Positions 59,129 through 59,346 are shown, numbered from the stretch's first letter. The stretch is 64,000 bases of DNA from Thermoplasmatota archaeon (GCA_038046725.1 JBBSVQ010000018.1:24168-88167); one strand, 5' to 3'. Made by a program: numbers and translations. Notes: generated by a model from the letters alone, not told the origin.

Positions 59129-59167
59129 GGAAACCGGATCTCCGCGCCCCCCTGCATCCGGGGGGGT

Positions 59168-59202
59168 CGCGCGCATGTGCGCGTACGCGTACGCGCGTAT
59201 AA
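59168..59202 (-). promoter_or_regulatory. gyrBA promoter: TTATAC box followed by a 34-bp alternating purine/pyrimidine tract
   Basis: Plus strand 59168-59201 CGCGCGCATGTGCGCGTACGCGTACGCGCGTATA alternates without a break; minus-strand TTATAC at 59202-59197. Confidence 0.65.
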
Positions 59203-59346
59203 GGGCTCCCAGGAGTGGCTAGAACGAGCGGAAACGGCCCTCCCGGGCCCGAACGGCGGGGCCGGAGGGGGAAGGTGGCCCGGGGCCCTCACAGCGCCCG
59301 CGCCAACCATCGCCCACGACGACCAAACAGGAATGCCGGGAGGCGG

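Follow-up and report, generated by a model that had tools for sequence, protein, structure and literature searches.

The sequence analysed here (hereafter the window) is a stretch of 64,000 nucleotides (JBBSVQ010000018.1:24168-88167) from an uncultured Thermoplasmatota archaeon, represented by a metagenome-assembled genome (MAG; GCA_038046725.1) of 2.07 Mb in 46 contigs, with 67.7% GC and a CpG excess of 1.16. Its minus strand carries gyrB and gyrA in a single operon, preceded by the co-directional gene scpB; the nearest named GyrB relatives among the matches listed are Thermoplasmata MAGs. The 218-bp gap upstream of gyrB holds a perfect pyrimidine–purine alternation of 34 bp, a candidate Z-DNA-forming element on the putative core promoter of the operon, which is the subject of this study. 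The features of the locus, in window coordinates, are as follows.

54469..57009, minus strand: gyrA coding sequence, with Pfam DNA_topoisoIV and six GyrA_C blades; downstream of gyrB in the same operon.
57113..59128, minus strand: gyrB coding sequence, with Pfam DNA_gyraseB, Toprim, HATPase_c and GyrB_C; the ATG start at 59128 was deduced from an alignment of relatives.
59140..59143, minus strand: Shine-Dalgarno-like GGAG, 11 nt before the ATG and conserved in the genus alignment.
59147..59167, minus strand: predicted 5'-leader hairpin (RNAalifold), ACCCCCCC / GGATGCA / GGGGGG, with a GGATGC loop motif.
59167..59174, minus strand: predicted zone of transcription initiation, some 28-35 nt past the first T of the TATA box and among the final bases of the tract.
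59168..59201: Z-DNA-prone tract of 34 bp in perfect pyrimidine–purine alternation, the longest such run in the genome; CGCGCGCATGTGCGCGTACGCGTACGCGCGTATA on the plus strand.
59197..59202, minus strand: putative TATA box TTATAC, in phase with the tract over its last five bases; conserved in the window's family (f1), including tract-less species.
59347..60015, minus strand: scpB (segregation and condensation protein B), with Pfam SMC_ScpB, upstream of and co-directional with gyrB; its start is uncertain, at 60015 or 59997.

Read in gene sense, the gap before gyrB runs ...gggagccc TTATAC GCGCGTACGCGTACGCGCACATGCGCGCG ACCCCCCC GGATGCA GGGGGG cgc GGAG atccggtttcc ATG: cccTTATAC places the box at 59202-59197, the tract extends to 59168, the hairpin segments ACCCCCCC-GGATGCA-GGGGGG cover 59167-59147, and GGAG (59143-59140) precedes the ATG (59128). 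The tract begins within TTATAC and lies 39 nt upstream of the gyrB ATG. It consists of 17 consecutive and unbroken pyrimidine–purine (YR) dinucleotides, namely 10 CG, 3 CA/TG and 4 TA steps, and at 34 bp it exceeds the minimum length of Z-forming sequence and matches its composition (8-12 bp or more of alternation, mainly in CG and CA/TG steps). An in-frame ATG at 59176, inside the tract, was rejected as the gyrB start, as relatives conserve the GGAG-spaced ATG at 59128.

An initial annotation, made from the sequence alone, had read TTATAC as the box of an archaeal core promoter, and this reading is borne out. The genome encodes the TATA-binding protein (TBP), the box stays in place in tract-less relatives, and boxes of the form TTATC, TATAC or TTAAAT precede the mature 5' ends of its tRNAs by about 30-35 nt; given this likeness, TTATAC would be a normal TATA box in this genome. 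Archaeal promoters have a characteristic spacing between TATA box and start, from which the start zone was placed. In two tract-less relatives (L003 and L005) the corresponding layout is TTTAAC, 22 nt and GCGACCCCCC, which points to a start near the G/A of GCGACCCCCC, equivalent to about 59167-59174 in the window. On this placement, the tract would span about -29 to about +5 relative to the predicted start. Immediately downstream, the stem-loop that the initial annotation had noticed in the 5' untranslated region is a conserved, covarying 5' stem: RNAalifold on 11 members of the genus gives 9 pairs, 5 of them with compensatory changes. It is retained where the tract has been lost and is an element separate from it. 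No relevant Rfam family was found in a gathering-threshold scan of the window or in a permissive scan of 59000-59450.

The coordinates first given for the tract (59168-59201, starting inside the minus-strand TTATAC) are correct, as is the remark that nothing comparable occurs elsewhere in the window, where the next-longest alternating run is 17 bp. A genome-wide ranking by length, which had been proposed as a check, places the tract first: in the whole-genome scan (2.07 Mb) it is followed by runs of 24, 21 and 20 bp, and those of the next-longest runs that were read fall in coding-looking sequence. Run counts halve with each added base (184 at 12 bp, 103 at 13 bp, ... 8 at 16 bp), and extrapolation yields an expectation of about 1e-4 runs of at least 34 bp per genome. 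This run-length distribution, together with recurrence across lineages (see below), rules out chance or base composition as the origin of the tract. The 24-bp runner-up (CGTGTGCATGCGCATGTGCGCGTA, C44:24787-24810) is conserved at orthologous places in four other genomes (G006, G011, G002 and G044) and, lying in coding-looking sequence, is probably the by-product of a conserved peptide. No alternating tract was found upstream of topA.

Conservation within family f1 was assessed on 28 gyrB loci with upstream sequence, drawn from GyrB searches in relatives and from further family members. A TATA box followed at a distance of 0-4 nt by an alternating run of 16-40 bp is present in 26 of them, one of these runs being cut by a contig end and three split by a single phase slip. 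The boxes read TTATAC, or TTTATC/G in the window's genus, and the tracts themselves are diverse in sequence (e.g. CGCGTGCGCGCGTGCACGCGCGTG, TACGCGCGCGCGTACGCGCGTGTG and TATACGCGTGCGCGCGTGTGCACACGTACGCGCGCGCATA). A search for the pattern (YR)11 in 32 family genomes returned only a few tracts of at least 22 bp in each; the recurrent non-coding one is that of gyrB, the other recurrent one lying in coding-looking sequence. Conservation of the alternation upstream of gyrB in relatives, which the initial annotation had named as a check on its idea, extends far more widely (see below) than it had expected.

The two loci without a tract belong to L003 and L005, sister species nested among tract bearers (support 100/98). 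Both retain TTTAAC in the same place as well as the leader hairpin, with AAAAAT or ACAATT near -10 in place of the tract. Because these sisters are nested inside tract-bearing species, the tract appears to be ancestral in f1, to have been lost once, and to be replaceable by an ordinary promoter. Topoisomerase content shows no link to this loss, Topo VI subunit A being present in both tract-less species and in nearly all relatives searched. In one genome of the same genus (G002), a second, partial gyrB copy (C11:1999-2592) carries its own TATAC and a 32-bp tract (C11:1911-1942); this copy could reflect strain heterogeneity or assembly contamination.

Substitution patterns show that the alternation is under selection. 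In the 20 aligned columns that follow TATAC, changes counted on a maximum-likelihood tree of GyrB number 25, none of which is a transversion; inclusion of locus L119 adds a single transversion, a C-to-G change that breaks the alternation of L119 itself. On the upstream side of the TATA box, 57 of the 90 changes in 20 columns are transversions, this flank being probably saturated. With a neutral transition share of two-thirds, the probability of at most one transversion in 26 changes is about 4e-4. The best explanation is that selection retains strict pyrimidine–purine alternation and CG richness, that is, the properties that would enable a B-to-Z flip.

The palindrome that had been noticed within the tract is real and extends to 18 bp (GCGCGTACGCGTACGCGC). 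Its length is within shuffle expectation (P = 0.16) and it is not conserved in relatives. The mean length of the longest perfect palindrome is 11.8 bp over 25 tracts and 12.0 bp once their dinucleotide units are shuffled, and palindrome centres range from position 3 to position 27. The cruciform offered earlier as an alternative to Z-DNA gains nothing from these data and is unsupported, since the palindromes are no longer than those of shuffled alternation and their centres move between species. The same figures, with no inverted repeat around a fixed centre, argue against a dyad operator for a dimeric factor.

To gauge how far the arrangement extends, we sampled 151 genomes evenly across Thermoplasmatota, yielding 461-bp gyrB-upstream windows for 122 genomes outside f1. 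Tracts of at least 16 bp within 420 nt upstream of gyrB were present in 12/15 genomes of family f10, 7/8 of f15 and 13/15 of f23, and in single genomes of f35 and f42; in 29 other Thermoplasmatota families, 0/82 genomes had a tract of at least 16 bp upstream of gyrB. The tracts of f10, f15 and f23 are CG-rich even in loci of 44-57% GC, and in three genomes (G156, G179 and G099) the gyrB tract is the sole run of at least 20 bp in the genome. Among 78 mostly bacterial gyrB loci listed, no run of at least 20 bp occurs within 350 nt upstream, and the single 16-bp run belongs to a Methanomethylophilaceae archaeon; f10 itself includes this sequence, L204 and L077 being identical over the stretch compared. 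A universal gyrB feature is ruled out by these mostly bacterial loci and by the 29 tract-less families.

The side of the TATA box on which the tract lies differs between lineages: downstream in f1, upstream in f15, f23 and haloarchaea. In f23, for example, the layout is ...GCGCGCG atgga TTTAAATA, in f15 it is ...GCGCGCG aggc TTTATC, and in f10 the tract runs into TATATAA. What is kept in f1, f10, f15, f23 and haloarchaea is adjacency, the alternating run being contiguous with the presumed TATA box.

The haloarchaeal set comprised 60 genomes from the class containing a Haloarcula MAG. By inspection, 58/60 carry a GC alternating run of 8-22 bp on the upstream side of the gyrB TATA box, separated from it by 2-5 nt. 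For the longest run per genome, the median is 13 bp within the proximal 150 bp, where 46/60 genomes reach at least 12 bp, and 7 bp within the distal 150 bp, where 2/60 do so. In at least 24 of these 60 haloarchaea (loci L252-L311 for the whole set), the divergent neighbour of gyrB is top6B, identified by an NCBIfam match on its N-terminus, which starts on the opposite strand 146-319 nt upstream of the conserved GyrB N-terminus; in these genomes the tract therefore sits between the promoters of both type II topoisomerases. In the shortest gyrB–top6B spacers, it lies between two oppositely oriented TATA-like boxes, e.g. ...tttagtaagtag ttcgcgccCGCGCGTGCGagcc TTTAAGG.

Two further observations concern related promoters. 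In AT-rich families of the same class as the window's archaeon (L025-L027, L031), the gyrB promoter has no alternating tract and carries a conserved TTTATTAGCCTCTACTCCATATGA block (TATA plus about 17 nt), which suggests that another conserved element of the core promoter occupies this position. In f23, a second recurrent tract of 30-36 bp is AT-richer (e.g. CATATATATGCATGTATGTGCATACATGTACACACA) and occurs at L244 2001-2036 (G089), L245 2001-2032 (G171) and L246 ~2005-2036 (G136). At L246 it exits a TTTATA box about 16 nt upstream of the start codon of an ArsR-like regulator, a small winged-helix protein (Pfam HTH_20, E = 1.6e-7); this TATA-plus-tract layout is that of gyrB in the window's family.

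Turning to the physics of the tract, B–Z energies were computed from published values, checked against Table 1 of PMC3024258. The run of lowest energy as Z-DNA is 28-30 bp long (about 59168-59198) and excludes the TATA dinucleotides. The predicted critical superhelical density (sigma) ranges from -0.043 in a 3-kb domain to -0.033 in domains of at least 50 kb. In a partition-function calculation for positions 54201-64000 (9.8 kb), in which the tract dominates predicted Z formation, the probability of the Z form is 2% at sigma -0.030 and 97% at -0.0375, with a midpoint near -0.034. The predicted transition lies inside the range of physiological negative superhelicity. Ranked by onset superhelicity genome-wide, the tract comes first for domains of at least 20 kb but drops to third place at 5 kb and to 22nd at 2 kb.

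Together, these results lead us to propose that the tract is a selected non-B (Z-DNA) element of the gyrBA core promoter that couples gyrase transcription to supercoiling, with the Z form as the OFF state, a reading to which we assign a probability of about one half. Selection appears to act on DNA conformation and not on base-specific contacts, because tract length and letters vary, the tract may lie on either side of the TATA box, and almost only transitions are tolerated. Fixed protein geometry fits poorly with a tract on differing sides, whereas mere adjacency of a non-B element fits easily; possibly, the box could have moved between the ends of the tract, as TATA is itself alternating and (CG)n can become (TA)n by transitions alone. 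The B-to-Z flip is favoured as the conformational change that sequences of this class are known to undergo, and Z as OFF because only that sign gives homeostasis and fits the data on novobiocin, which induces haloarchaeal gyrase genes (PMC9348778; PMC3184054). Homeostatic supercoiling control has been inferred for haloarchaea (PMC11894792), and a 2024 review of archaeal DNA-topology regulation, in which the term Z-DNA does not occur, presents evidence for homeostasis in Haloferax; its retrieved passages offer no mechanism.

On this proposal, when local DNA is relaxed the tract would be B-form, TBP and transcription factor B (TFB) would bind TTATAC, RNA polymerase would start about 30 nt downstream, and gyrase would be made. 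Once gyrase, or transcription of the operon, took local superhelicity beyond a value of about -0.03 to -0.04, a stretch of 28-30 bp beside the TATA box would turn Z. A B–Z junction would then fall on the TATA box, with left-handed helix where TFB and polymerase make contact and open the DNA, and initiation would decrease; the flip would also take up about 6 superhelical turns. Gyrase expression would thereby be stimulated by relaxation, and its threshold would be steep.

A broader and tentative form of the proposal, which we hold to be less probable, is that gyrase-bearing archaea of Thermoplasmatota and Halobacteria share a protein-free sensor, in which a TATA-adjacent Z-prone tract flips past a threshold and shuts off gyrase. 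Tracts would be adapted in length to conditions in the cytoplasm, at about 10-16 bp in the high-salt haloarchaea, whose CG tracts would flip readily, and 20-40 bp elsewhere, and in haloarchaea the element would couple gyrB and top6B. Molar salt stabilises the Z form of CG tracts, with which the shorter haloarchaeal tracts would be consistent.

Several observations weigh against the Z-DNA proposal. The onset threshold of the tract is unexceptional, as many CG runs of 14-20 bp in the genome lie within 0.001-0.005 sigma units of it, and rank margins are small owing to the thousands of short CG runs in this CpG-rich genome. The worry that such tracts might simply be common here is justified for short Z-prone CG runs, which are common and have similar thresholds, but not for length, as nothing comes near 34 bp; the tract is exceptional in length, position and conservation, and not in threshold. 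The B–Z energy parameters derive from measurements at room temperature in about 0.1 M Na+, conditions that need not match the ionic and chromatin context of the cell. Sequence is conserved inside the tract, as it would be in a protein site too: nine columns are invariant, 14/16 loci retain a TA step 12-13 nt after TATAC, and a core resembling CGCGCGCGTGCG recurs in haloarchaeal tracts. Two species manage without a tract. Finally, a CG-only stretch over the melting region (about -12 to +2) would by itself require negative supercoiling, the opposite of homeostasis, and makes the net sign uncertain; in bacteria, GC-rich discriminators make promoters depend on negative supercoiling (PMC8422995).

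Several of these points would suit a tract that serves as an operator for a DNA-binding protein, either a gyrase regulator or a variant TFB/TBP contact on the core promoter, the alternation then being a by-product of the recognition sequence. The invariant columns, the conserved TA step and the CGCGCGCGTGCG-like core of haloarchaeal tracts could all be read in this way, sites over or beside the TATA box are typical of archaeal repressors, and other conserved motifs near gyrB promoters (GGGATGC and GGGCATAC) suggest additional factors. A recognition sequence is nevertheless hard to reconcile with a length that varies from 16 to 40 bp inside one family, with placement on opposite sides of the TATA box in different families, or with palindromes at shuffle level whose centres shift. 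The restriction to transitions is equally awkward, as base-specific contacts would tolerate transitions no better than transversions. Nor is there a second comparable site to hint at a regulon, since the genome contains no other intergenic long tract and none at topA, short degenerate copies not having been searched exhaustively. We regard an operator as unlikely, though worth keeping in view.

A somewhat less probable explanation dispenses with Z-DNA and invokes the mechanics of B-form DNA: a CG/YR stretch that is stiff to melt and torsionally deformable would tune the supercoil dependence of open-complex formation or of TBP bending. In f1 the tract covers exactly the interval from TATA box to predicted start, the tract-less species have an ordinary AT-rich stretch near -10, the conserved TA step falls where the bubble should begin, and the GC content of the melting segment sets the supercoiling response in bacteria (PMC8422995). 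This account, however, leaves unexplained both the tracts of f15, f23 and haloarchaea, which lie upstream of the TATA box and outside the melted region, and the strictness of the alternation, as distinct from plain GC richness; taken alone, it predicts gyrase expression stimulated by supercoiling and not by relaxation.

It is improbable that the tract is a preferred binding or cleavage site of gyrase or Topo VI, whose occupancy would exert autogenous control or set local supercoiling. Type II topoisomerases reportedly favour alternating purine–pyrimidine repeats, and the position of the tract between divergent gyrB and top6B in at least 24/60 haloarchaea would be apt, but gyrase sites are long (about 130 bp) and degenerate and not short perfect alternations, and gyrase prefers relaxed or positively supercoiled DNA, so that repression by occupancy would oppose homeostasis. 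An action of the tract as RNA, in which an upstream start or scpB read-through would place a GC hairpin in the gyrB leader, is very improbable: alternating CG-rich sequence is self-complementary, but the f1 tract begins inside the conserved TATA box, the tracts of f15, f23 and haloarchaea lie upstream of theirs, palindromes do not exceed expectation, no Rfam family matches, and a separate covarying leader hairpin sits downstream of the tract.

Among known systems, the closest to the Z-DNA element proposed here is the RY box of the Halobacterium bop promoter, reportedly described by Yang, Kim, Molinari and DasSarma in 1996 (J Bacteriol 178:840; cited in PMC9348778 and PMC3184054) as an alternating run of about 11 bp beside the TATA box, which is said to adopt a supercoil-dependent non-B structure in a promoter whose transcription is stimulated by supercoiling. 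Both cases place an alternating run beside the TATA box of a minimal archaeal promoter in a gyrase-bearing archaeon, and the bop run, like that of f1 with its predicted start, lies between TATA box and start. The bop run is shorter (about 11 bp, against 34 bp here and 16-40 bp in the family), its reported effect is stimulation by supercoiling, whereas gyrase homeostasis requires the opposite, and it concerns one gene in one genus, whereas the gyrase-promoter element spans two phyla.

Work attributed to Peck and Wang and to Rahmouni and Wells is said to have established supercoil-driven Z-DNA in (CG)n and (TG)n inserts of plasmids and upstream of active Escherichia coli promoters. These engineered inserts are of the same sequence class as the tract and match its predicted threshold, 32-bp CG inserts flipping near sigma -0.03 to -0.04, and those upstream of promoters occupy the place where transcription-generated negative supercoils collect, as the tract does. 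They differ in being probes, whereas the tract occurs naturally, is maintained by selection and belongs to the gene by which supercoiling is set. The theory of supercoil-driven Z-DNA is treated in PMC3024258 and PMC3343103.

In bacteria, transcription of gyrA and gyrB is stimulated by relaxation, for which PMC3184054, PMC11894792 and PMC8422995 cite Menzel and Gellert 1983; the mechanism of this activation is still unexplained (PMC8422995). Bacterial gyrase promoters resemble the proposed system in their homeostatic coupling to supercoiling and in having determinants within the core promoter; they differ in using sigma-70, in locating those determinants in the -10/start region, and in that no Z-prone tract has been described for them. 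A 5'-proximal hairpin was reported by Unniraman et al. in 2002 to stabilise the gyrase mRNA of Mycobacterium smegmatis. Like the gyrB leader hairpin at 59147-59167, which is predicted and shows compensatory changes, it is a stem-loop at the 5' end, although its sequence differs and it belongs to a different domain of life.

Eukaryotic promoter flipons, which are Z-prone sequences near start sites (PMC10474125; for mouse genes, PMC3024258), share with the tract their Z-proneness, their concentration just upstream of starts and a proposed capture of transcription-generated torsion. Flipons involve nucleosomes and Z-alpha proteins, whereas the tract is found in a gyrase-bearing prokaryote, at the very gene that encodes gyrase. 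Our search of the accessible literature on Z-DNA in connection with gyrase promoters, archaea and relaxation-stimulated transcription, including a 2025 pan-genome Z-DNA survey, turned up no account of tracts of this kind. The underlying physics and the notion of an RY box are established, whereas their conserved link to the gyrase promoter in several archaeal lineages appears to be new.

If true, the broader form of the proposal would show for the first time that Z-DNA has a natural regulatory role in a prokaryote, and would supply the mechanism of archaeal gyrase homeostasis. Relaxation sensing by gyrase promoters is unexplained even in E. coli, and a role for prokaryotic Z-DNA has long been debated; alternation that is under selection at the TATA box of a gene whose product introduces negative supercoils, in two phyla, offers a concrete and cheap test of both questions. 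Haloferax volcanii is genetically tractable and novobiocin-responsive, and its class carries the element. Should the Z-DNA model fail, the conserved tract would still mark an undescribed cis-element of archaeal gyrase promoters.

Finally, several minor motifs accompany these promoters. The sequence GGGATGC(A), seen at 59153-59159 of the window (minus strand, GGATGCA), occurs upstream of gyrB across the whole class (L011-L020, L021, L025, L026, L031, L032, L111-L119). It occupies the hairpin loop in the window's genus; in several other genera it is separated from the ATG by 2-3 nt, and in AT-rich families by about 50 nt. The motif does not match the expected anti-Shine-Dalgarno sequence, and f10 genomes have a similar one, GGGCATAC or GGGAGCATAC, directly after the TATA box. 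Upstream of topA (contig C4, ~10232-10330, minus strand), CCCCCtacGGGGGATGA and GCGACCCCC resemble gyrB leader elements, namely a C-run/G-run hairpin with GGATG and the GCGACCCCCCC at the predicted start, a likeness that may be coincidence or a motif common to topoisomerase genes. About 20 tRNA promoters (e.g. C16 tRNA-Ile, C26 tRNA-Pro and C11 tRNA-Gly) share (A/T)(A/T)GTCGGC about 10 nt downstream of a TATA-like box, which looks like a lineage-specific proximal promoter element.

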